NCBI GenBank assembly: GCA_964354495.1
Contig: CAYHAA010000014.1
Location: 9,361 to 41,360 of the forward strand
Direction of reading: 5' to 3'
Source of the DNA: an uncultured archaeon
GTDB taxonomy: Archaea > Asgardarchaeota > Thorarchaeia > Thorarchaeales > Thorarchaeaceae
Length of the DNA stretch: 32,000 nt
The notes below the pieces were generated by a model. The model was given only the letters and a program-made list of their open reading frames with translations. It did no database searches and was not told where the DNA came from. A program made the position numbers and the translations under genes. Below, in pieces: positions 20,551 through 32,000 of the stretch. How positions within the stretch are numbered: position 1 is the stretch's first letter; each line of letters begins with the position of its first letter.

Positions 20551-20871
20551 ATGACATTGCCCAATGAGACCCTACATCATGTCCACGTTACAAGATGTAC
20601 GGTTTCTTACGTTTGCAGCGTCCATATGTAAGAGATAAATAGCAGATTCATTCCGCGAGTGACGTTATCATACACGGCAAGTATATTGTCGTCGAGATTG
20701 TAACAAAAGATACCGCAAAGCCGATTTGATGAACTTGAATGAGAAGACCTTGACAACTAACGAAGTGGAGATTTCAATGATAGGAGACCAAAGCACATCA
20801 TCCGACCGGCATCTGGGCTTTTTCTTTCACCTTTCAAAATCCTTTTCTTGTCTGGCAATGGAGGTCGTTTC

Positions 20872-23625
20872 ATGACCACAGAAAAACAGCACAAATCCAA
20901 GGGCGGCGGAGGTAGCACCGCAATCAAATCGAATGAAGCTCTTGTTGTTGGCGGTGGCGTTGCAGGAATGCAGGCAGCAATTGACATAGCTAACCAGGGC
21001 TTCAAAGTGACTCTGCTCGAAAGATCCTCATCAGTCGGCGGAGTTATGGCGAAAATTGATAAGACCTTCCCCACTCTTGATTGTAGTGCTTGTATTCTAA
21101 CTCCGCGACTCAGTGAGGTTTCTCGTCATCCCAATATTGATCTTCTTACATACTCTGAGATTAAGTCAGTAAGTGGAGCGTCTGGGGATTTTCGAGTCAG
21201 AGTCCATAGACACGCACGCTACGTGGACGAGAACAAATGTAACGGTTGCGGAGATTGTATTTCAGTCTGCCCTGTAGAAGTGCCGAATGAGTTCGATGGC
21301 AAACTAGGATTTCGAAAGGCGATCTATACACCTTTTCCACAGGCAACACCCAATGTCGTTACTGTCGACAAGAGGGGTGAACCTGCTTGCAGATCAACGT
21401 GCCCTGCTGAGGTAAATGCTCAGGGTTTTGTGACAATGATGCGTCATGGCAAGTTTGATGAAGCGCTCGAGATTGTCAGACGATCTATTCCATTTCCTGG
21501 GGTTCTCGGAAGGGTGTGTATTAGTTTCTGTGAAGCAGAATGCGAGCGAGGAATGCTTGATGAGAGTATGAGCATAAGAAATCTTCACAGATATCTTGCT
21601 GATTACGAACGGTCTCATGGAGCTGCTCCTGTAGTTGCAGACATCAATAAGAAAGAGCGAGTGGCTGTTGTGGGCGGCGGACCTGGCGGGATCAGTTGTG
21701 CCTATCATCTTGCCCGTATGGGTTATCCAGTCACGGTCTTTGAACGGCAGCAGAATGCGGGCGGGATGCTACGATACTGCATACCTGAGTATAGACTACC
21801 ACGTGACATTCTGGATGAGGAAATTCAGCGTGTTGTTGACATGGGAGTGAAAATCAAGACAGGAACAGACGTCAAATCCCTTAATGATCTGCTTAACAAG
21901 GGCTTCAAGGCTGTCTTCGTGGCTACTGGGGCTTGGGAAAGCAATAAGTTAGGAATTGCCGGTGAAGATGTCGAGGGCGTTGTCCATGCTATCAGATTCC
22001 TCCAGGATGTTAATACTGGCGAGAAGGTGACCGTCGGAGTGCGTGTCGTCGTTGTTGGTGGTGGAGATGCTGCCGTCGACTCTGCGCGTGTTGCAAGGCG
22101 ACTTGGAGCAAAGGAAGTGACTCTTGTCTATAGGCGTTCCCATGTTGAGATTCCGGCTATTCCAAGTGAAGTCGAGGATGCGAAGGCTGAAGGTGTCAGG
22201 TTCATGCTTTTGACAAACCCTGTTGAGATCCTATCTTCAAAGGGTCACATCACAGGAGTTCGATGCATCAAGATGCGTCTGGGTGAGCCTGACCACTCCG
22301 GACGGCGTCGAGCTGTTCCGATTCAGAATTCTGAGTTCACGATGGCTGTAGATGAGATGATTGTTGCAGTTGGTCAGTCAGCAGACCCGAAAGGTGTGCA
22401 GGCTGAGCTGGAATGCACTGAATGGGGGACTGTCAAATGTGACCCAATTACTCTTGCAACAAACGTTGCTGGGGTTTTTGGGGGTGGAGATATTTTCACC
22501 GGGCCGAACACAGTCGTTAAGGCTGTCGGTGCTGGTAGGCAGGCTGCTATCTCAATTGACAAGTACATTCGCGGCGTTGACTTGATGGAGGGTCGTGCAA
22601 ACGAACTCCACAGAGTACAGTCCTATGAAGTGGATAAGAGCAATATCCCTGTTGAGCCTCGTGCGATAATGCCTAAGCACATCCTTGAGGGCAGAAAACC
22701 TGACTTCTCTGAAGTCGAGCTCGGATTCAGTGATGCCCAAGCTATTCAAGAAGCTGAACGATGTTTCGGTTGTGCAGTCTGCTGTGAGTGTGCGAGATGC
22801 GTTGAGGCATGTACTCGGGAGGCTATCAATCATCATATGACTGATGAGGTGGTGGACCTGCATGTCGGTGCCATTATTCTGGCTACAGGGTACAGGCTCT
22901 TCGATGTTACGAAGTACCCACAGTATGGGTATGGCAAGTTGCCAAACGTCATAACAGCAATGGAGTTCGAGAGGCTGATTAATGCGGCAGGCCCCACACA
23001 TGGGCATCTTATTCGACTCACAGATGGCAAGATACCTGAGAGTATTGGTTTTGTTCAGTGTGTCGGTGCAAGAGATGTCCAGAAGGGTGTCCCGTTCTGT
23101 TCCAGAGTGTGCTGCATGTATGGTATAAAGAACGCTGTCATGGCGAAAGAGCACCGCCACGACGCAAAAGTGACTGTGTACTATGCGGATATTCGCGCCT
23201 TCGGAAAGGGATTTGAGGAGTTCTACGAGATGGCGCGTACACGCTTCGGTGTGAACTTCGTTCGAGGTCGTGTTGCAGAGGTCATGGAGGATAAGAAGAA
23301 TGAGAAGCTCATCGTCCGCTTTGAGGATACTGAAACGGGTGAGCTGCACGATGTAACTCATGACCTTGTCATTCTTAGTCCTGGAATCCAGCCTCCGGAG
23401 GGACTTGAGGACCTGGCAGTGGAACTCAATATGGATCTTAGTGATGAAGGCTATGTCCAAGTTCAAGATGCTGTCCTCACACCTGTTGATACCGATGTGC
23501 CTGGTGTGTTCGTTGCAGGATGTGCAGATGGACCCAAAGATATTCCCGATTCTGTGAGCGCGGGAAGTGCAGCTGCGATGAGAGCAACTATCATTCTGTC
23601 GAAGGTGGACAGGGAGGAGCAATAG
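20872..23625 (+). CDS. hdrA: HdrA-like flavoprotein with an inserted GltD/NfnB-like NAD(P)H module (HdrL type)
   Basis: SD GGAGGT then ATG 20872. GGGVAG..KTFPTLDCSAC. Inside the ferredoxin domain sits an insert: CRSTCP..GRVCISFCEAEC..GGGPGG..GGGDAAVD..YRRS..EAERC. The HdrA core then resumes (MEFERL, CVGARD, CSRVCCMY, GPKDIPDSV). Confidence 0.93.
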   Translation: MTTEKQHKSKGGGGSTAIKSNEALVVGGGVAGMQAAIDIANQGFKVTLLERSSSVGGVMAKIDKTFPTLDCSACILTPRLSEVSRHPNIDLLTYSEIKSVSGASGDFRVRVHRHARYVDENKCNGCGDCISVCPVEVPNEFDGKLGFRKAIYTPFPQATPNVVTVDKRGEPACRSTCPAEVNAQGFVTMMRHGKFDEALEIVRRSIPFPGVLGRVCISFCEAECERGMLDESMSIRNLHRYLADYERSHGAAPVVADINKKERVAVVGGGPGGISCAYHLARMGYPVTVFERQQNAGGMLRYCIPEYRLPRDILDEEIQRVVDMGVKIKTGTDVKSLNDLLNKGFKAVFVATGAWESNKLGIAGEDVEGVVHAIRFLQDVNTGEKVTVGVRVVVVGGGDAAVDSARVARRLGAKEVTLVYRRSHVEIPAIPSEVEDAKAEGVRFMLLTNPVEILSSKGHITGVRCIKMRLGEPDHSGRRRAVPIQNSEFTMAVDEMIVAVGQSADPKGVQAELECTEWGTVKCDPITLATNVAGVFGGGDIFTGPNTVVKAVGAGRQAAISIDKYIRGVDLMEGRANELHRVQSYEVDKSNIPVEPRAIMPKHILEGRKPDFSEVELGFSDAQAIQEAERCFGCAVCCECARCVEACTREAINHHMTDEVVDLHVGAIILATGYRLFDVTKYPQYGYGKLPNVITAMEFERLINAAGPTHGHLIRLTDGKIPESIGFVQCVGARDVQKGVPFCSRVCCMYGIKNAVMAKEHRHDAKVTVYYADIRAFGKGFEEFYEMARTRFGVNFVRGRVAEVMEDKKNEKLIVRFEDTETGELHDVTHDLVILSPGIQPPEGLEDLAVELNMDLSDEGYVQVQDAVLTPVDTDVPGVFVAGCADGPKDIPDSVSAGSAAAMRATIILSKVDREEQ

Positions 23626-23627
23626 CA

Positions 23628-24152
23628 GTGTCAAAAGATGGTGTCCGGCAAAAGTCAGTAGTCAATAATGTCCCAAGTTCAAACTTTGCTAAGGAGGTCG
23701 AGAAGGAATTCGGTGGGGAAGGGATTATGAAATGCATCCAGTGCGGTATGTGTACAGCTTCGTGCATGGTTGCGAGCATGACTGACCGTTATCGTCCTCG
23801 AAAGCTCATCCAGAAAGTCCTTCTTGGCAAACGCGAAGAGGTTCTCTCAAGCGAGCTCCCTTGGCTCTGCATGACCTGCAGACTATGTGAAGAGCGATGC
23901 CAAGAGGATGTCAACCTTGCAGAGATATTCCATGCGGTGCGCGAGATTGCTGCACGTGAAGGCTACGTTCCCAAGGTCTTTCAAAACACGATTAATAAGG
24001 TCCTAGAAGATGGTTGGCTGCTCAAAGATGCCTATACTGATTTTGTTGAGGATGACCGATCGGATCTTGGACTCGATCCCAGACTTGACTGGAACAATGA
24101 GTTCGTGAAGAAGGTCAAGAAGCGTTACTTTGACAGAGGCGATAAGAAGTGA
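23628..24152 (+). CDS. hdrC: Heterodisulfide reductase subunit C
   Basis: CIQCGMCTASC and WLCMTCRLCEERC. GTG start at 23628 after a GGAGG SD, in frame with the listed ORF. Confidence 0.93.
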   Translation: MSKDGVRQKSVVNNVPSSNFAKEVEKEFGGEGIMKCIQCGMCTASCMVASMTDRYRPRKLIQKVLLGKREEVLSSELPWLCMTCRLCEERCQEDVNLAEIFHAVREIAAREGYVPKVFQNTINKVLEDGWLLKDAYTDFVEDDRSDLGLDPRLDWNNEFVKKVKKRYFDRGDKK

Positions 24153-25015
24153 AAGAGTTCGTTCTCTACACAGGATGCACAACTCCTGTTCGATTACCCG
24201 GCTATGAAGCAGCGGTCACTGTTGTTCTTGAGAAACTTGGTGTTCGTCTGATTCCAATGAAGGATGCCAATTGTTGTGGCGCACAGTATGTCGAATCAGT
24301 AAGCCACACTGCCTTTGCAGCAATGAGTGGAAGAATCCTTGCTATTGCTGAGAGTATGGATCGTAACATCCTAGCAGTCTGTGGCGCCTGCTCAGGTTCA
24401 CTCAAGGCGGTGAAGCATGACCTCGATCATCACCCTGACCTGCGTGCGGAGGTCAATGATCTTCTTGCTGAAGAGGGCCTGAAGTATACAGGCACTGTAG
24501 AGGTGAAGCATCTTCTTCAGATCTTCAATGAGGACATTGGCTATGATGCGATAAAAGCTGCGATTGTAAAGCCCTATCATGGTGTACGTCTCGCTGCACA
24601 CTATGGTTGCCATGTGACGCGCCCTCCAGAAATCGTCCATGTTGACGATCCTGAAACTCCAGTCATTATCGACAGAATCATTGAGATTGCTGGCGCAACA
24701 CCAGTGGACTACACTGGAAAAACCCGTTGCTGTGGAGGCCCCATGCTGGCAATGGATCAAGAAGTCGCAAACAAGATCGGCCTTGACAAGATCAAGAATA
24801 TTCGAAATGAGAGAGCTCAAGGTATTGTTACAGCCTGTGTCTTCTGTGATATACAGCTGACTCAAGTGCAGTTCGGGGACACGGCTGGAAGCGAGCCGAA
24901 GATACCTGTGTTGACTCTTCCGCAGTTCTTGGGTCCCGCGTTGGGTATCAACTTCGATGAACTAGGCATTCAACTGAATAAAATCAGCCCAGAGGCGATT
25001 CTACAAGTAACGTAG
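24149..25015 (+). CDS. hdrB: Heterodisulfide reductase subunit B
   Basis: Two CCG domains: YTGC..CCGA..CGAC and HYGCH..CCGG..CVFC. GTGA overlap with hdrC. Confidence 0.95.
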   Translation: MKEFVLYTGCTTPVRLPGYEAAVTVVLEKLGVRLIPMKDANCCGAQYVESVSHTAFAAMSGRILAIAESMDRNILAVCGACSGSLKAVKHDLDHHPDLRAEVNDLLAEEGLKYTGTVEVKHLLQIFNEDIGYDAIKAAIVKPYHGVRLAAHYGCHVTRPPEIVHVDDPETPVIIDRIIEIAGATPVDYTGKTRCCGGPMLAMDQEVANKIGLDKIKNIRNERAQGIVTACVFCDIQLTQVQFGDTAGSEPKIPVLTLPQFLGPALGINFDELGIQLNKISPEAILQVT

Positions 25016-25026
25016 AGGAATAGAGA

Positions 25027-26328
25027 ATGACGGAGAAGAAAGCACAAGCAGCACTCATCATCGGTGGCGGTGTTGCCGGGATGCAAGCCGCGCTTGACAT
25101 TGCGAACCAAGGATTCAAGGTCTATCTAGTCGAGAGGACCCCTTCAATAGGAGGTAGAATGGCACAGATAGACAAGACATTTCCAACACTCGATTGCAGC
25201 GCATGTATCTTGACACCCAAGCTCAGTGAGGTCTCTCACCATAAGAATATCAATCTGCTGACATATTCGGAAGTGGGTAGCGTGACGGGGAAATCTGGCG
25301 ATTTTCGTGTGCGTATAAGACGCAAGGCTCGTTTTGTGAAGGAAGACCTCTGTTCTGGCTGCGGTGATTGCGCCGCTGAATGTCCAACCGAAGTTCCTAA
25401 TGAGTTCGATATGAACATTGGATTCAGGAAAGCTATCTACGTTGGATTCCCGCAGGCGACACCTAATGTCTACACTGTTGACAAGGAGAATTGCATCAAC
25501 TGTGGAAGGTGTGTGAAAGCATGTCAGCGGAATGCTATTGATATGGATATGGCCGATAAGACCCTAGACATTCATGTTGGTGCGATCATTGTCGCTACTG
25601 GATTCGAGCTATTCGATGTAAGTCAATATCCACGGCTAGGTTATGGTCATTATGCAAATGTCATTCATGCGATGGAGTTTGAACGGCTCATTAATGCAGC
25701 AGGGCCGACTCACGGCCATCTTGTTCGCCTGAGCGACGGGAGGAAACCCCACAGCATTGGCTTTGTGCAGTGCGTTGGTGCGAGGGATGTTCAGAAGGGT
25801 GTTCCCTATTGCAGTCGTGTTTGCTGCATGTACTCTATCAAGAACGCCGTAATGACACTCGAACATTATCCCGATGCTGAAGTATGGGTGTACTATGCAG
25901 ACATTAGGGCATTTGGCAAGGGATTCGAGGAATTCTATGAGATGGCCAAGAATCGGTTCGGTGTGAAGTTTGTTAGGGGCCGTGTGGCCGAGGTGATGGA
26001 AGGCAAGAATACAGGCAACCTGGTTGTAAAGGTCGAAGATACCGAGAGCTCAACAATTCGCCTTGTTGAGCATGACCTGGTGGTGATCAGCCCTGGTATC
26101 GTTCCTCCTGAAGGAATGGATACCTTGGCAACAAAGATGGGAATCGCCAAGACTGATGACGGCTATGTTCAGATTGATCACTCCTTCTTCGGCCCCACCT
26201 TGACGAAGGTCCCGGGTGTGTTTGTATGTGGATGTGCAGATGGGCCTAAGGATATTCCAGACTCTGTTAGCGCGGGAAGTTCAGCCGCAATGAAGGCAAC
26301 CATCATCCTGAGCAAAGGAGGAACATAG
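25027..26328 (+). CDS. hdrA: Partial HdrA: FAD core plus inserted 2x[4Fe-4S] domain, lacking the N- and C-terminal Fe-S domains
   Basis: GGGVAG, FPTLDCSAC, CSGCGDCAAECP, CINCGRCVKAC, CVGARD and CSRVCCMY. Close paralogue of the 20872 gene without its GltD insert. Confidence 0.93.
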   Translation: MTEKKAQAALIIGGGVAGMQAALDIANQGFKVYLVERTPSIGGRMAQIDKTFPTLDCSACILTPKLSEVSHHKNINLLTYSEVGSVTGKSGDFRVRIRRKARFVKEDLCSGCGDCAAECPTEVPNEFDMNIGFRKAIYVGFPQATPNVYTVDKENCINCGRCVKACQRNAIDMDMADKTLDIHVGAIIVATGFELFDVSQYPRLGYGHYANVIHAMEFERLINAAGPTHGHLVRLSDGRKPHSIGFVQCVGARDVQKGVPYCSRVCCMYSIKNAVMTLEHYPDAEVWVYYADIRAFGKGFEEFYEMAKNRFGVKFVRGRVAEVMEGKNTGNLVVKVEDTESSTIRLVEHDLVVISPGIVPPEGMDTLATKMGIAKTDDGYVQIDHSFFGPTLTKVPGVFVCGCADGPKDIPDSVSAGSSAAMKATIILSKGGT

Positions 26329-26331
26329 AGT

Positions 26332-28086
26332 TTGTCAGACGCAAAGGAAGAACCACGAATCGGCGTATTCGTTTGTCATTGCGGTCATAACATAGCAGGT
26401 ACTGTTGATGTGGTTTCAGTTGCAGCAATGGCCAGGGAACTACCAAACGTCGTATTCTCAACAGATGAGATGTTCATGTGTTCGGATGCAGGACAGACCC
26501 TGATCAAGGAGAAAATCAAGGAACTCAACCTCAATAGAGTAGTTGTTGCAAGCTGTTCACCAAGGATGCATGAGCCAACTTTCCGTCGTGTTGTTGAGGA
26601 GGCTGATGTCAACAGATATCTGTTCGATCAAGTGAACCTCAGAGAGCACGTTAGCTGGTGCCATTCGAGGGAACCCGAGAAGGCAACAGAGAAGGCAAAG
26701 GACCTTGTTCGCATGTCAGTAGCCAGAGCTGCAAAACTGGAGAGTCTGCCAATTAAATCGGTGGAAGTCATTCCGAAGACACTTATCATTGGGGGTGGAA
26801 TTGCCGGTCTCAGGGCATCTCTGGACATAGCAGAGCGTGGCTTTGACGTGATTCTTGTGGAGAAGGATAGACAGCTTGGAGGCAATGTAGCCAAATGGAC
26901 CCATCTCTTCCCCACGGATGACTCGGGCGCTCAGGTCATCGGGCCTCTCATCAGTGATGTGAAGAAGCACAAGCGCATCAAGATTCACACGCGAAGCAAG
27001 GTGTCCGACTTTGATGGATTCGTTGGGAACTTCGGTGTCAAGATTAAGAATCTAGACACTGAGAAAAAACGTCGATATGAGGTAGGCGCTGTCATAGTTG
27101 CCACTGGGTTTGAGCCCTTCAAGCCTGTAGGCTATTATGGCTACGGAACTCATCCTGATATCATCACGCTTGCAGAGCTCCAGGAGATGAAACCAAATGA
27201 AATGCTGCTCAGACCAAGCGATGGCAAACCTGTCAAGAAGCTCGTCTTCATTGGCTGTGTTGGATCTCGAGAACCTGGCAAAAAGGGGCATGAGCATTGC
27301 TCAAGACACTGCTGCTCCGCAACAGCCAAGGCTGCAGGAGACCTCAGAGATCGTGTTGATGAGGCGCTCGTCCTCTATCAGGACATTAGGACCTATGGAA
27401 AGGGTCACGAGGAATTCTACAGGCTTGCGCGGCAAAAGCATGTGATTTATAGCAAGTTTCCGCAAGATGCAAAACCAGAGGTCACAATAAAGAGGGGCAA
27501 AGTACACCTGAGGTGGTTCGATGTGCTTGCCGGTGTTGAGCTTGAGTTCGAACCTGATTTGCTTGTGCTCGCATCAGCGATGATTCCACCTGCGGATATG
27601 GATGAAACGGCAAAGATGTTCAGTCTCACAAGAAGCGGTGACGGGTTCTTCAATCCGGAGCATATCAAGCTTGCACCACTGACGACCCACACAGCTGGTG
27701 TGATGATAGCTGGTGCTGCTCAAGCTGCAAAGAATGCATCTGAATCAGTGATCGATGCGAGTGGCGCCGCAGCGAAGGCTGTGAGCCTCATGGCTCAGGG
27801 AAAGGTTGAGATTGAGTCTACTGTTTCACACGTGATCTCAGAGCTCTGCTCATCCTGTCGCACCTGCGTCACTGCGTGCCCATATGGCGCAATTTCAATG
27901 GATTCGGAGCATGACCCACCTATCGCATTTGTTACAGAGGCGAAATGCAAGGGCTGCGGGACATGCGCTGCTGCCTGTCCTAGCAGTGCAATCATCATGT
28001 ATCATTCCACGGATGAGCAAATCATGGCCATGGTGGAGGCATATCTATGCACGACACCAGAGGCTCAGGGAGGTGGTTCAGCATGA
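26332..28086 (+). CDS. hdrA: Partial HdrA: N-terminal domain plus FAD core plus C-terminal 2x[4Fe-4S], lacking the inserted ferredoxin
   Basis: RIGVFVCHCG..FMCS..SCSP..NLREHVSWCH, GGGIAG, CVGSR..CSRHCC, and CSSCRTCVTACP / CKGCGTCAAACP. TTG start. Confidence 0.93.
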   Translation: MSDAKEEPRIGVFVCHCGHNIAGTVDVVSVAAMARELPNVVFSTDEMFMCSDAGQTLIKEKIKELNLNRVVVASCSPRMHEPTFRRVVEEADVNRYLFDQVNLREHVSWCHSREPEKATEKAKDLVRMSVARAAKLESLPIKSVEVIPKTLIIGGGIAGLRASLDIAERGFDVILVEKDRQLGGNVAKWTHLFPTDDSGAQVIGPLISDVKKHKRIKIHTRSKVSDFDGFVGNFGVKIKNLDTEKKRRYEVGAVIVATGFEPFKPVGYYGYGTHPDIITLAELQEMKPNEMLLRPSDGKPVKKLVFIGCVGSREPGKKGHEHCSRHCCSATAKAAGDLRDRVDEALVLYQDIRTYGKGHEEFYRLARQKHVIYSKFPQDAKPEVTIKRGKVHLRWFDVLAGVELEFEPDLLVLASAMIPPADMDETAKMFSLTRSGDGFFNPEHIKLAPLTTHTAGVMIAGAAQAAKNASESVIDASGAAAKAVSLMAQGKVEIESTVSHVISELCSSCRTCVTACPYGAISMDSEHDPPIAFVTEAKCKGCGTCAAACPSSAIIMYHSTDEQIMAMVEAYLCTTPEAQGGGSA

Positions 28087-28529
28087 CTGCTGAAACAACC
28101 GTACCTGCTACAACAGAAAAAGAGTGGGAGCCCCGTATTGTTGCATACTGCTGCAACTGGTGCAGCTATGCAGGGGCCGACTTGGCTGGAACAAGTCGAA
28201 TACAGTATCCAACGAACGCAAGAATCGTTAGAGTGAACTGCACTGGCAGGCTGACCCCGGAGTTTGTTCTTGCCGCTCTGGACATGGGTGCTGACGGCGT
28301 TCTTGTTTCTGGGTGCCACCCCGGAGACTGTCACTATACAAGCGGCAATCTGAAGGCTCGCGCTCGGTGGGCACTAATGGAGATGGCGCTTGAACAAGCT
28401 GGAGTAGACCCGCGTAGGGTTCGCTTGCAGTGGGCCTCAGCCTCTGAGGCTCAAATCTTCGCTGATGGTGTAAAGGCGATCACAAAACAAGTAAAAGAAC
28501 TGGGTCCAATCAGGAGTGAATGGAAATGA
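28083..28529 (+). CDS. mvhD: MvhD [2Fe-2S] hydrogenase delta subunit
   Basis: YCCNWCSYAGAD..RVNCTGR..GCHPGDCHY..WASASE. ATG 28083 overlaps the hdrA stop (ATGA). All ligands are Cys, with no TGA. Confidence 0.96.
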   Translation: MTAETTVPATTEKEWEPRIVAYCCNWCSYAGADLAGTSRIQYPTNARIVRVNCTGRLTPEFVLAALDMGADGVLVSGCHPGDCHYTSGNLKARARWALMEMALEQAGVDPRRVRLQWASASEAQIFADGVKAITKQVKELGPIRSEWK

Positions 28530-28762
28530 GTAAGATGTTTGTTAACTTCTTCAGTCAGAAGCGCGGAGATGTAAGAAAGCAGCGCAAAGCGATCGAGGAT
28601 GTCCTGAAAGCGGGACCTTCCACAGTATCCAAGCTCGCAGAAGCCACGGGATTCGAGAAGAACTTGGTCGTCTGGAACCTCATGGGTATGCTGCGCTGGG
28701 GTGCTGTTGAGGTCGCCAGTGAAGAGGGCGTTGAGCTCACTTACGTCTTGAAGGAGGCTTAG
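28526..28762 (+). CDS. Small winged helix-turn-helix protein inside the hdr-mvh operon
   Basis: AIEDVLKAGPSTVSKLAEATGFEKNLVVWNLMGMLRWGAVEV fits an ArsR/MarR-like wHTH pattern. ATGA overlap with mvhD and an SD for the next gene at its end. Confidence 0.75.
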   Translation: MSKMFVNFFSQKRGDVRKQRKAIEDVLKAGPSTVSKLAEATGFEKNLVVWNLMGMLRWGAVEVASEEGVELTYVLKEA

Positions 28763-28764
28763 TT

Positions 28765-29688
28765 CTGGCCAATCCTGTTTCCATCGCCATGGGTCAGGGC
28801 AGCTCCTGTTGGGGCTGTTTCCAGAGCCTGGTCGATATCCATATGAATCTGGCCACAGTTCTGCCAGCCTTGGATATCAAGTACTGGCAATGTGTCGTGG
28901 ACTACAAGCTCTCAGACCTTGAGAATTATCCCGAAAAATCGATTGCTCTGGGCCTGTTTGAAGGCACTGCTCGGACTGAGGAAGATGTCCATCTTCTGAA
29001 GGTCATGAGAGAAAAGTGCCAGACACTGATTTCCTTTGGGTCTTGCTCATGTTTTGGCGGCATTCCTGGACTTGCCAATTTCTATGACATTGAAGAATGT
29101 CTTGATGTCAAGTTTCGTGAGAATAAGACGGTGACTGGAGGACAGGTTCCATCAGAGAACGTGCCCGGTATCGAACCTGTGGTTCGACCAAACTCAGATA
29201 TCGTTGATTTCGATATATACCTCCCTGGGTGTCCCCCTACTTCGAAACTCATACTCGCTGCAGTGACTGCATTGCTTGAAGGAAAGCCAATCGAGCTGCC
29301 GCCTCATACCGTCTGTCACTACTGTGCTCGCGAGAAGAAAGAGACCCCAATTACTGCCATCAAGCGTCCCTATCAGGGAATAGCCGACCCAGACAGGTGT
29401 CTGCTTGAGCAGGGCTACATTTGCCTTGGCTCAGCGACCTGGGGCCTATGCGAGGGGCAGTGTGTAAACAAAGGAGCGACATGTCGTGGATGCTTTGGGC
29501 CTCCGCCTCCCATAATGCAGGACCACGGAGCGAATTCAATGTCAATGCTAGGCACTTATGCTCCTCTGACACCTGAAGAACTCAAAGAACAAGTGAAGGA
29601 CCCACTTGGACTATTCTATAGATTCACCTATGCAACAAGCCACCTTGGTTCAATACGCATCAAACGTGAGGAGGCGAAGAACAAGTGA
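28765..29688 (+). CDS. mvhG: MvhG/VhuG [NiFe]-hydrogenase small subunit (group 3c)
   Basis: SSCWGC, FEGT, FGSCSCFGGIPGL, LPGCPP, VCHYC, CLLEQGYICLG..C..QC..CRGCFGP. The proposed start is CTG 28765; the first ATG is at 28789. Confidence 0.93.
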   Translation: MANPVSIAMGQGSSCWGCFQSLVDIHMNLATVLPALDIKYWQCVVDYKLSDLENYPEKSIALGLFEGTARTEEDVHLLKVMREKCQTLISFGSCSCFGGIPGLANFYDIEECLDVKFRENKTVTGGQVPSENVPGIEPVVRPNSDIVDFDIYLPGCPPTSKLILAAVTALLEGKPIELPPHTVCHYCAREKKETPITAIKRPYQGIADPDRCLLEQGYICLGSATWGLCEGQCVNKGATCRGCFGPPPPIMQDHGANSMSMLGTYAPLTPEELKEQVKDPLGLFYRFTYATSHLGSIRIKREEAKNK

Positions 29689-31001
29689 CGGATGAGAAGA
29701 CGATTAGAATCGACCCAGTGACCCGACTTGAAGGACATGGCTCACTCACGATCAAGCTTGGCAAAGACGGAAAAGTCAAGGATCTCCAGTTCAATGTCAA
29801 CTCGACGAGATTCTTCGAGAAATTCTTGGAGGGTCGTCCCATGGAGGAGGCTCCGAGAATCGCTCCACGTATCTGTGGTATCTGTCCTATCCCCCATCAC
29901 CTTGCGTCTGTGAAGGCAGTCGAGGCTGCATGGGATGTCACACCACCCCCTGCTGCTGTGAAGATCAGAAGGCTGATGATGGAGGCTAAGCAGCTCTCGA
30001 GCCATGCGATTCACTTCTATGCTCTTGCTGCTCCCGACTTCGTCTTTGGTCCCTTTGCTGATCCAGCAGTAAGAAATGTTGCAGCTGTCTTGAAGTATTT
30101 GCCTAATGTAGCAGTACAAGCCATCAAGCTAATGGAGTTCGGTCAAGAACTCATTAAGACTGTTGGAGCCAAGGCAATCCACCCAACAACAGCCATCCCC
30201 GGTGGTCAACTGACTCCTATGAAGGAGGAGGACCGTGATTACTGGCTTGGCAAAGTTCCTGAGATGCTTGAGAATGTCAATAAGACAGTAGAACTGGCAA
30301 AGACTGTTGTCAACGCCTACATTGACGTTGTGACCAAGATCGCTGTTGTCCCGACATACTACATTGGACTGGCGAACAAAGGCGCTCTGGACATCTATGA
30401 TGGAACAGTTCGTGTCATGGACCCGAAGGGCAAGATTGTCGCTGACTTCGAGCCCAAAGACTACACCAAGTACTACGGAGAGCACGTATCAGAGCATAGC
30501 TATGCAACTCATATCTACTACAAGCCTGCAGGATACCCTGAAGGCATCTGGAGAGCCAACACTCTTGCACGATGCAATGTCGCAGACAAGATGGCAACTC
30601 CCCTTGCTGATACGGCACTGAAGGAGATGAGAGGACTTATCGGAAGACCTTCGCACCACACCTTTGCGTATCACTATGCGCGAATAGTGGAGCTGGTGCA
30701 AGCTGCTGAGTCGATCAAGAAGCTATTGGAAGACCCAGAGATTGTGAGCACCGATGTGAAGCTCTCAGATGTTGAACCGAAGGCCGGTGATGGTGTTGGC
30801 ATTGTAGAGGCTCCACGAGGGACTCTTCTGCATAACTATGTGAGTGATGACAAGGGTATGCTTGTGAAGGCGAACCTTATCGTAGCTACAAACAACAACA
30901 TCGCAGGTATTGAGAAGAGCCTCATGGTGGCTGCAAAGCAGATCTTTGAGGACAAGGCTCACGAGAGTCTGAAACTACCTGACCCAATGGTGAAGACCTA
31001 G
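29685..31001 (+). CDS. vhuA: MvhA/VhuA [NiFe]-hydrogenase large subunit, N-terminal polypeptide lacking the C-terminal L2 motif
   Basis: IDPVTRLEGH, L1 motif RICGICPIPH and VEAPRGTLLH are present. It ends at TAG 30999-31001 with no DPCxxCxxH. GTGA overlap with mvhG. Confidence 0.95.
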   Translation: MTDEKTIRIDPVTRLEGHGSLTIKLGKDGKVKDLQFNVNSTRFFEKFLEGRPMEEAPRIAPRICGICPIPHHLASVKAVEAAWDVTPPPAAVKIRRLMMEAKQLSSHAIHFYALAAPDFVFGPFADPAVRNVAAVLKYLPNVAVQAIKLMEFGQELIKTVGAKAIHPTTAIPGGQLTPMKEEDRDYWLGKVPEMLENVNKTVELAKTVVNAYIDVVTKIAVVPTYYIGLANKGALDIYDGTVRVMDPKGKIVADFEPKDYTKYYGEHVSEHSYATHIYYKPAGYPEGIWRANTLARCNVADKMATPLADTALKEMRGLIGRPSHHTFAYHYARIVELVQAAESIKKLLEDPEIVSTDVKLSDVEPKAGDGVGIVEAPRGTLLHNYVSDDKGMLVKANLIVATNNNIAGIEKSLMVAAKQIFEDKAHESLKLPDPMVKT

Positions 31002-31052
31002 AAAATGACCATACCTCAGGATTATAAAGCGGAGAAGGAAATGTGAAATATA

Positions 31053-31205
31053 GTGTCAGAAGAAATCCCTGAAGGAGTACTGAACCTCCTGGAAATGGTG
31101 GTTCGGTGCTATGACTGCTGACTATCATGCGGCGCTCATCTGGTCGTCGTCGACGATGAGGGTCGCGAGATAGTCAGGAAGGAGCTTGTGACCGGCGGCG
31201 GATGA
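31053..31205 (+). CDS. vhuU: VhuU-like selenoprotein: separate C-terminal peptide of the hydrogenase large subunit (50 aa, Sec at TGA 31119-31121)
   Basis: Translated by hand: MSEEIPEGVLNLLEMVVRCYDC-U-LSCGAHLVVVDDEGREIVRKELVTGGG. It matches the missing L2 motif (NLxEMxxRAYDPCLSCxxH) with TGA at the first Ni-ligand Cys. An alternative in-frame ATG lies at 31005. Confidence 0.92.
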
Positions 31206-31239
31206 AGGCACGGCCCCAAAATCATGGGCCGAGTCTAAC
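31202..31239 (+). promoter_or_regulatory. SECIS-like RNA hairpin (AUGA / 11-bp helix / AAAA loop)
   Basis: ATGA-AGGCACGGCCC-CAAAATCAT-GGGCCGAGTCT-AAC. Ten of 11 positions pair (one G-U, one A.A mismatch) and the apical loop is A-rich. The 3' core reads AA instead of the canonical GA. Confidence 0.65.
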
Positions 31240-31249
31240 ACACCCTGCA

Positions 31250-31291
31250 AAGGTGCGCTGGTCGCACTCCTTCCATCCTTTGTCCTTTTCC
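31250..31291 (+). terminator. Hairpin plus pyrimidine tract, possible terminator of the hdr-mvh operon
   Basis: GTGCG-ctggt-CGCAC (31253-31267) flanked by AAG/CTT, followed by ccatcctttgtccttttcc. Confidence 0.4.
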
Positions 31292-31378
31292 AGAGAGTTC
31301 TCAGCCATTATCCCCTATTTCCGTCTAGATTAATAGTAAGCTCGCGGCTAGATACCGACAGCATCAAGGGTGATAGGA

Positions 31379-32000
31379 TTGGATGCTATCGACAAGCAAC
31401 TCTGGATAGAACTAGGTCGGAATTGCCGGCACTCCTACAGGTATCTAGCTGACAAGATTGGGATTAGTTCAAATGCAGTCATGCAACGTGTTGCGAAGTT
31501 GCTGGAAACCGGTGTCATTCGGAAGTGGTATCTGGCATTCCGTCCTGCAATGATTGATGCCCAGTTCGCCTTCATCGAAGTGAAAACGGATGGAAGCCAA
31601 GACGAAGACGGGCTCCTCAAGACCCTTGGCACCAATCCAATGATCTTTTGTCTTCTTCCCTTAACGACTGGAGACTTTGCCCTGCATGCGTTCTACATAG
31701 GCGCCGCCTCTTTGCTTGAATTGACGTCTTTCATTCGTTCCGTGGATGGCGTCATTGATGTCAAAGTGCATCCGACAACAGCCAATGCTGGGAGGAAGAT
31801 GAAGTTGGGACCATTGCACCTGCGGATCCTTCCATGGCTAGCAAGAGACCCGAGGGCGAGCATCTCTGATATTGCTAGGGATTCAGGGCTCACAGCTCGG
31901 AGAGTCAAAAGGCTGGTCGATGAGCTTGTCGAGAGTGATGCGTTTGACTTCTCTTTCGTCTGGAATCCAAACGCTGGAGAAGGTATGGCGTTTATTTCTA
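31379..32000 (+). CDS. Tandem (double) Lrp/AsnC-family transcriptional regulator, runs off the window edge
   Basis: Translated by hand from TTG 31379, open to the window end. First HTH: DAIDKQLWIELGRNCRHSYRYLADKIGISSNAVMQRVAKLLETGVI. Second HTH: HLRILPWLARDPRASISDIARDSGLTARRVKRLVDELVESD. Confidence 0.88.
   Translation, partial: MDAIDKQLWIELGRNCRHSYRYLADKIGISSNAVMQRVAKLLETGVIRKWYLAFRPAMIDAQFAFIEVKTDGSQDEDGLLKTLGTNPMIFCLLPLTTGDFALHAFYIGAASLLELTSFIRSVDGVIDVKVHPTTANAGRKMKLGPLHLRILPWLARDPRASISDIARDSGLTARRVKRLVDELVESDAFDFSFVWNPNAGEGMAFIS

Follow-up and report, generated by a model that had tools for sequence, protein, structure and literature searches.

Members of the Methanococcales and of the Asgard archaea are already known to divide the large subunit of a [NiFeSe] hydrogenase between two products, VhuA and a very small selenocysteine (Sec)-containing peptide, VhuU. 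Here we describe this arrangement in a 32,000-nucleotide stretch of DNA (hereafter, the window) that forms part of a 3.3-Mb metagenome-assembled genome (MAG) of the Thorarchaeia, 97.7% complete. A large-subunit gene without the C-terminal nickel-binding motif, vhuA, is followed in the window by a small gene with an in-frame UGA codon, vhuU. We consider it very probable that the two genes encode a split group-3c (Mvh/Vhu-type) [NiFeSe] hydrogenase in which the Sec-containing VhuU completes VhuA.

Among solved structures, the closest counterpart is 9sfi, in which a large part of about 420 amino acids is accompanied by a tiny U-x-x-C-x-x-H selenopeptide, as in the window, and which gives the top solved match to both parts. 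We take chains g and M of 9sfi and 9t1s to be VhuA and VhuU of the F420-non-reducing [NiFeSe] hydrogenase of Methanococcales. The Methanococcales Vhu enzyme has the same partners as those encoded here, namely a small subunit, an MvhD-type subunit and Hdr. However, its VhuU reads D-P-X where that of the window reads D-C-U. The Sec insertion sequence (SECIS) of Methanococcales is of the archaeal GAA-bulge type, and not an AUGA kink-turn (PMC4989117, PMC11227280).

In Asgard archaea, Mariotti (2016) described a Lokiarchaeota VhuU.1 of about 50 amino acids with one Sec and with a "lokiSECIS" directly 3' of the gene. This element consists of AUGA, a stem of about 9 bp and an 11-nucleotide A-rich loop, and its AUGA doubles as the stop of VhuU.1 (PMC4989117). 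Huang (2024) found the FrhA/MvhA/VhuU family in 68.3% of Sec-using Asgard genomes, reported that 77.4% of Thorarchaeia use Sec, and identified the type I eSECIS-like element as the major form for the FrhA/MvhA/VhuU gene (PMC11227280). A VhuU of about 50 amino acids was also reported by Valentin-Alvarado (2024) in wetland Atabeya- and Freyarchaeia (PMC11291895). The layout of Lokiarchaeota VhuU.1, including the stop inside AUGA, is also that of vhuU in the window. Unsplit Cys-type MvhA chains (5odc chain F, 9sw2 chain F) and a group-3b-like large subunit on contig C40 of the same genome share with the window the fold family and the position of the C-terminal motif. In contrast, these are single chains of 435-475 amino acids that carry D-P-C-x-x-C-x-x-H and require no recoding.

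The two parts of the large subunit

The vhuA gene (29685..31001, plus strand; 438 amino acids, stop TAG) matches Pfam NiFeSe_Hases and has the N-terminal RICGIC motif, and the D-x-C-x-x-C-x-x-H end is absent. Its match to solved full-length MvhA chains (472-475 residues) ends near residue 411-420, and its top solved match is 9sfi chain g (418 amino acids, E 1.4e-133), the large part of a split enzyme. An earlier interpretation of the window, made without database searches (hereafter, the sequence-only reading), had noted that this protein stops before its second nickel-binding motif, and the end of the match agrees with that observation.

After a gap of 51 nucleotides, vhuU (31053..31205, plus strand) begins with GTG and comprises 50 codons and the stop TGA at 31203-31205. 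When its in-frame TGA is translated as U, the peptide contains RCYDC-U-LSCGAH followed by LVVVDDEGREIVRKELVTGGG, and U is residue 23. Solved MvhA and FrhA chains align to this peptide over their last ~30 residues, on either side of the TGA, with U on the first Cys of their DPCxxCxxH. The segment U-L-S-C-G-A-H corresponds to C-L-S-C-A-T-H of these chains and to X-Y-S-C-A-A-H of 9sfi chain M, whose 27 amino acids align to residues 5-30 of VhuU with X at the U position. The candidate Sec codon (31119..31121, plus strand) therefore occupies the first Ni-ligand position of D-x-[C/U]-x-x-C-x-x-H, and every coordinate given for this frame and its TGA by the sequence-only reading is correct.

To assess conservation, the peptide was searched against 40 related genomes. 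The frame, with one in-frame TGA, recurred in 13 more members of the genus at 86-94% identity and in three less closely related genomes from the phylum at 48-66%. Counting the genome of the window itself, 14 of 25 genus-level genomes and 3 other Asgard genomes have it. With the large subunit as query, 67 loci were fetched from MAGs of Thor-, Frey-, Jord-, Hel- and Lokiarchaeia ("Promethearchaeota"), the nearest being Thorarchaeota MAGs, several of them from wetlands. In 59 of these 67 loci, vhuU with D-C-U-x-x-C-x-x-H lies 3' of the large subunit, a recurrence far beyond chance. In 50 distinct nucleotide sequences, the TGA is invariant and never TGY, which answers the question, raised by the sequence-only reading, of whether it is kept or alternates with a Cys codon. 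Among the six codons that follow (L-S-C-G/A-A-H), variation occurs at none of the six first positions, at one of the six second positions and at all six third positions. This is synonymous-type variation, the pattern expected if translation runs on beyond the UGA and the product is under selection as protein.

Contigs of three public runs, comprising wetland metagenomes and one sediment metatranscriptome, cover 31119-31121 and have no difference there among the differences listed. Contigs of the metatranscriptome run extend over 31062-31224, again with the TGA unchanged among the differences listed. Because these data are assembled contigs instead of raw reads, and the RNA library may contain DNA, they lend the TGA weak support.

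One feature sets the Asgard peptides apart. At 31104-31139 the window has the pattern D-P-U-x-x-C-x-x-H, the UGA coinciding with the first Ni ligand and the otherwise near-invariant Pro being replaced by Cys. The residue before Sec is likewise Cys, not Pro, in 59 of 59 Asgard vhuU loci (D-C-U), and all 59 have a further Cys in R-C-Y-D. In comparison, the solved VhuU (9sfi chain M) has D-P-X, and the genome's own unsplit paralogue (C40, 435 amino acids) has D-P-C. The GCUG end of thioredoxin reductase offers an analogue in which adjacent Cys and Sec form a selenenyl-sulfide. By this analogy, the vicinal pair of VhuU could conceivably form a reversible selenenyl-sulfide that protects or gates the Ni-Fe-Se site, and the Asgard enzymes might then constitute a chemically distinct [NiFeSe] variant, although we regard this idea as speculative and rather unlikely.

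The SECIS hairpin, Sec machinery and proposed maturation

A eukaryote-like (Asgard type I) SECIS hairpin, identified by its fold and by covariation among congeners, occupies 31202..31239 (plus strand). Its 5' core AUGA (31202-31205) includes the vhuU stop codon UGA, its stem pairs 31206-31215 with 31227-31236 (10 positions, one A-A mismatch), its 11-nucleotide loop is A-rich, and its 3' core is AA-C (31237-31239). The loop measures 9-11 nucleotides and contains AAAA. These are features reported for type I elements: an AUGA (or GUGA) core immediately 5' of the upper stem, a stem of 7-15 bp with at most two mismatches, a loop of 8-20 nucleotides with unpaired adenines near its 5' side and a 3' core of [G/A]A, here in the minor form, AA (PMC11227280). 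Apart from its host, a member of the Thorarchaeia, the window differs from Lokiarchaeota VhuU.1 in the length and mismatch of this stem, in the AA 3' core and in a loop that starts CCAAAA.

When 14 congeners are aligned, none departs from AUGA or from the AAA of the loop. Pairs form in 90.6% of cells in the stem, versus at most 47.5% once the partner is displaced by 1-3 columns. Four of the 10 pairs are changed on both sides. The 46-nucleotide hairpin alone folds at -15.8 kcal/mol (z -2.7) and stands out from the 3' region as a whole, whose folding energy is not significant (z -0.74). A covariance model built from the congener hairpins scores the window copy at 59.7 bits and has two matches in the whole genome, the vhuU copy and a hairpin after cysS; because this model derives from the SECIS of a single gene within a single genus, it would not detect other forms such as type II. 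A pattern scan for AUGA-stem-loop-[GA]A gave 11 matches, which apart from vhuU lie mostly inside genes, and none of them is convincing. An Rfam scan of 31000-31400 matched no SECIS family, but Rfam seemingly has no Asgard-type model, and this result is uninformative.

The stop codons of vhuA are also relevant to the action of the hairpin. Where vhuU lies 3' of vhuA, the latter ends in TAA in 29 cases, in TAG in 19 and in TGA in none (0/48), counts that are no statistical proof because the loci are related. Of five vhuA genes with no vhuU downstream, two end in TGA. This avoidance gives indirect support to the view that the SECIS directs Sec insertion at an upstream UGA. These five (L093, L094, L095, L111 and L115) are paralogous truncated vhuA genes, 57-72% identical to that of the window. 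No vhuU was found in the ~330 nucleotides translated 3' of them, and no motif match in their ~1.5-kb flank. Their metal-binding end may be supplied by a vhuU elsewhere, or the enzymes may be inactive.

The genome contains the machinery that Sec insertion requires, as the sequence-only reading had proposed to verify. Genes for tRNA-Sec, EFSec/SelB, SepSecS and PSTK are clustered at C7:70434-74679. The tRNA-Sec scores 54.8 bits, above the Rfam cut-off, and is called SeC with anticodon tca by ARAGORN; PSTK is full-length at 143 bits, a score under the strict NCBIfam cut-off. SelD is encoded on contig C15, and a HycI-family maturation protease, for which a search had likewise been proposed, on contig C6.

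The sole good SelD (G000:C15:38288-39208, minus strand; locus L007; 391.6 bits) is of the Cys type (G-L-G-C-A-C-K). This SelD lies within an open frame of 743 codons whose N-terminal part resembles a NifS-type cysteine desulfurase or selenocysteine lyase, and therefore appears to be a fusion. Most Asgard SelD proteins are reported to be selenoproteins. The HdrA, MvhD and AhpC-type homologues tested in the genome are, like SelD, Cys forms, and by these tests VhuU alone carries Sec among the known Asgard selenoprotein families tested.

After His29, VhuU has a C-terminal extension of 21 residues (31140..31202, plus strand), the presumed substrate of a maturation endopeptidase. This tail aligns with residues 387-403 of the 405-residue FrhA precursor (3zfs_A), whose mature form (4ci0_A, 386 amino acids) ends at the homologous His and has thus lost an extension of 19 residues. 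The likeness agrees with the earlier suggestion that the residues after His are a maturation tail, and because of it we infer that cleavage by the HycI-type protease is likely the last step in the formation of VhuU.

Taken together, these elements suggest the following scheme. The vhuA gene would encode the large subunit minus its last ~30 residues, and vhuU would encode those residues as a separate 50-residue precursor. The UGA at 31119-31121 would be decoded as Sec by tRNA-Sec and EFSec, directed by the SECIS ~80 nucleotides downstream, and the UGA that stops vhuU would escape recoding because it is too close to the hairpin. Sec23 and Cys26 of VhuU and the two Cys of RICGIC in VhuA are the predicted ligands of the Ni-Fe centre. 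After metal insertion, the endopeptidase would remove the tail, and the product would be a selenopeptide of ~29 residues bound to VhuA in an electron-bifurcating VhuAGU-MvhD-HdrABC complex.

Weighing of alternative explanations

Several points weigh against a Sec-containing VhuU. The Pro of canonical DPU/DPC is Cys in the window. At 31237 the window copy alone has A (an AUGA_AA core), where the 13 congeners have GA, and an AA core could weaken the kink-turn. The DNA contigs that cover the TGA come from relatives that are 5-9% divergent, and minor TGY variants are possible. With regard to the core, AUGA_AA is a reported natural variant (PMC11227280). Several Lokiarchaeial loci among those fetched also have AA cores, and the A at 31237 may be either a real variant or an assembly call. 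The window loop likewise starts CCAAAA versus GUAAA in the 13 congeners.

It might be proposed that the large-subunit gene is a decaying pseudogene, interrupted by a nonsense mutation or frameshift, and that the TGA frame is an untranslated remnant, given that standard translation leaves the large subunit with no second metal-binding motif and that some congeners have decayed, two of them (G024 and G007) keeping only the tail and the hairpin. However, the split and the TGA are common to five Asgard classes, codons after the TGA change synonymously, the start codon and the Shine-Dalgarno-like GTGA/GGTG block before it are conserved, the Sec machinery is complete, and a split enzyme of this kind has been solved; we therefore consider decay extremely improbable. 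Alternatively, the UGA might be read as Cys or Trp by near-cognate read-through, leaving a [NiFe] site, or might simply terminate translation to give a 22-residue product. The rarer AA form of the SECIS core is compatible with such an outcome, as is the fact that selenium content is deduced from sequence. Nevertheless, the third base of the TGA is never C, T or G in the 50 sequences, even though all neighbouring third positions are variable, the genome encodes a dedicated tRNA-Sec and EFSec, and the frame beyond the UGA is under constraint as protein, so that this explanation is very unlikely.

A longer VhuU with two Sec residues would start at ATG 31005, in frame with 31053, and would require read-through of both TGA 31044-31046 and TGA 31119, the former being the sole intervening stop. 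The relevant region is a 13-codon frame (31005-31046, plus strand; ATG .. ATG TGA) in frame with vhuU, of which congeners keep the nucleotides, not the frame or the stop, and which is more likely a ribosome-binding site or leader sequence than coding. It ends in an ATGTGA block (31041..31046, plus strand) whose Shine-Dalgarno-like GTGA lies 6 nucleotides before the vhuU start, and the TGA in question falls inside this GTGA/GGTG block. The corresponding sequence in relatives is ACGTGA or GGTGTAA, with TAA for TGA in three congeners (L027, L030 and L033), and in L029 the upstream block is shifted by one base, hence it is conserved as nucleotides and not as a frame. Because relatives also have ATG exactly at the site of the window's GTG 31053 and, shortly 5' of it, a block reading GTGA or GGTG, the start of vhuU is fixed, and we give the two-Sec protein next to no credence. 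A VhuU with one Sec thus remains the preferred explanation. The proposal of the sequence-only reading that a VhuU-like selenopeptide completes a split hydrogenase is sustained by the homology that flanks the TGA, the invariance of that TGA, the SECIS, the Sec machinery and the solved split enzyme 9sfi.

Genomic context and implications

The hydrogenase genes of the window have the composition of a group 3c Mvh/Vhu set, in which a RICGIC-containing large subunit is adjoined by genes for a small subunit, an MvhD-type subunit and HdrABC-like proteins (20848-29688), all on the plus strand. A first HdrA-like gene (from 20848; 925 amino acids, with a GltD/Fer4_20-type insert) is separated from a second (from 25027) by HdrC-like (Fer4) and HdrB-like (CCG-domain) genes at 23520-25015, recognized by Pfam. 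A third HdrA-type subunit, a Cys form, is encoded at 26332..28086 by an uninterrupted open reading frame of 584 amino acids with Pfam Pyr_redox_2 and Fer4 matches. The second and third HdrA-like genes are in the same frame, but they do not form a Sec-containing fusion, because the stop that separates them is TAG and not TGA. The MvhD/VhuD-type subunit follows at 28047..28529 (Pfam FlpD, E 1.6e-50; an uninterrupted 160 amino acids, Cys form). Next come an 80-codon open reading frame at 28520-28762, which textbook mvh operons do not include, and the MvhG/VhuG-type small subunit at 28789..29688 (Pfam Oxidored_q6), whose stop TGA overlaps the start of vhuA (GTGA).

The stops of the third hdrA (28084-28086), mvhD (28527-28529) and mvhG (29686-29688) are all TGA and lie 1.5-3.1 kb 5' of the SECIS on the same strand, so that only vhuA, the gene adjoining the SECIS, avoids TGA as its stop. 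If the operon is one transcript, then either the range of the SECIS is short here or some read-through is tolerated. No other TGA links two long frames within a known gene in the window, and no in-frame stops were found at conserved positions of HdrA and MvhD paralogues genome-wide. The sequence-only reading was therefore right to regard VhuU as the only selenoprotein evident in the operon.

Copies of the vhuU 3' end were observed elsewhere. The hairpin after cysS, a second intact SECIS-like hairpin (G000:C1:677396-677441, minus strand; locus L125; 29.9 bits, E 4.8e-4), lies ~25 nucleotides after the TAG stop of the cysteinyl-tRNA synthetase gene, which has no in-frame TGA. Before this hairpin stands what is left of the ..T-S-G-G-stop tail, and after it comes a CCCCGCAAGGG hairpin, as found 3' of the SECIS in the vhuU 3' regions of relatives. 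The locus thus resembles a duplicate of the 3' end of vhuU. This 3' end and its untranslated region also recur as a decayed direct copy, with the hairpin stem lost, ~1170 nucleotides downstream of 31143-31290, from 32311 onward and past the end of the window (G000:C14 about 41671-41830). This copy follows an AsnC/Lrp-type regulator gene (31370 onward), which is therefore bracketed by the duplication. In the two congeners that keep only tail and hairpin (L038, G024:C279; L039, G007:C297), the last ~20 vhuU codons and an intact SECIS are preceded by unrelated, AT-rich sequence, and what remains there therefore appears to derive from a hydrogenase locus that was lost or disrupted.

The sequence-only reading rated the novelty of this gene too highly. 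The gene, the SECIS type and the stop inside AUGA have been published for Asgard archaea, Thorarchaeia included (PMC4989117, PMC11227280, PMC11291895), and the locus establishes no new principle. Its main value is as a correction of annotation, together with small variants of motif and SECIS. When the UGA-containing vhuU is left out, the genome's only Mvh/Vhu-type hydrogenase appears catalytically dead. With vhuU, it becomes a complete HdrABC-coupled, selenium-dependent H2-oxidising module, a difference of relevance to models of how Asgard archaea metabolize hydrogen and live in syntrophy.

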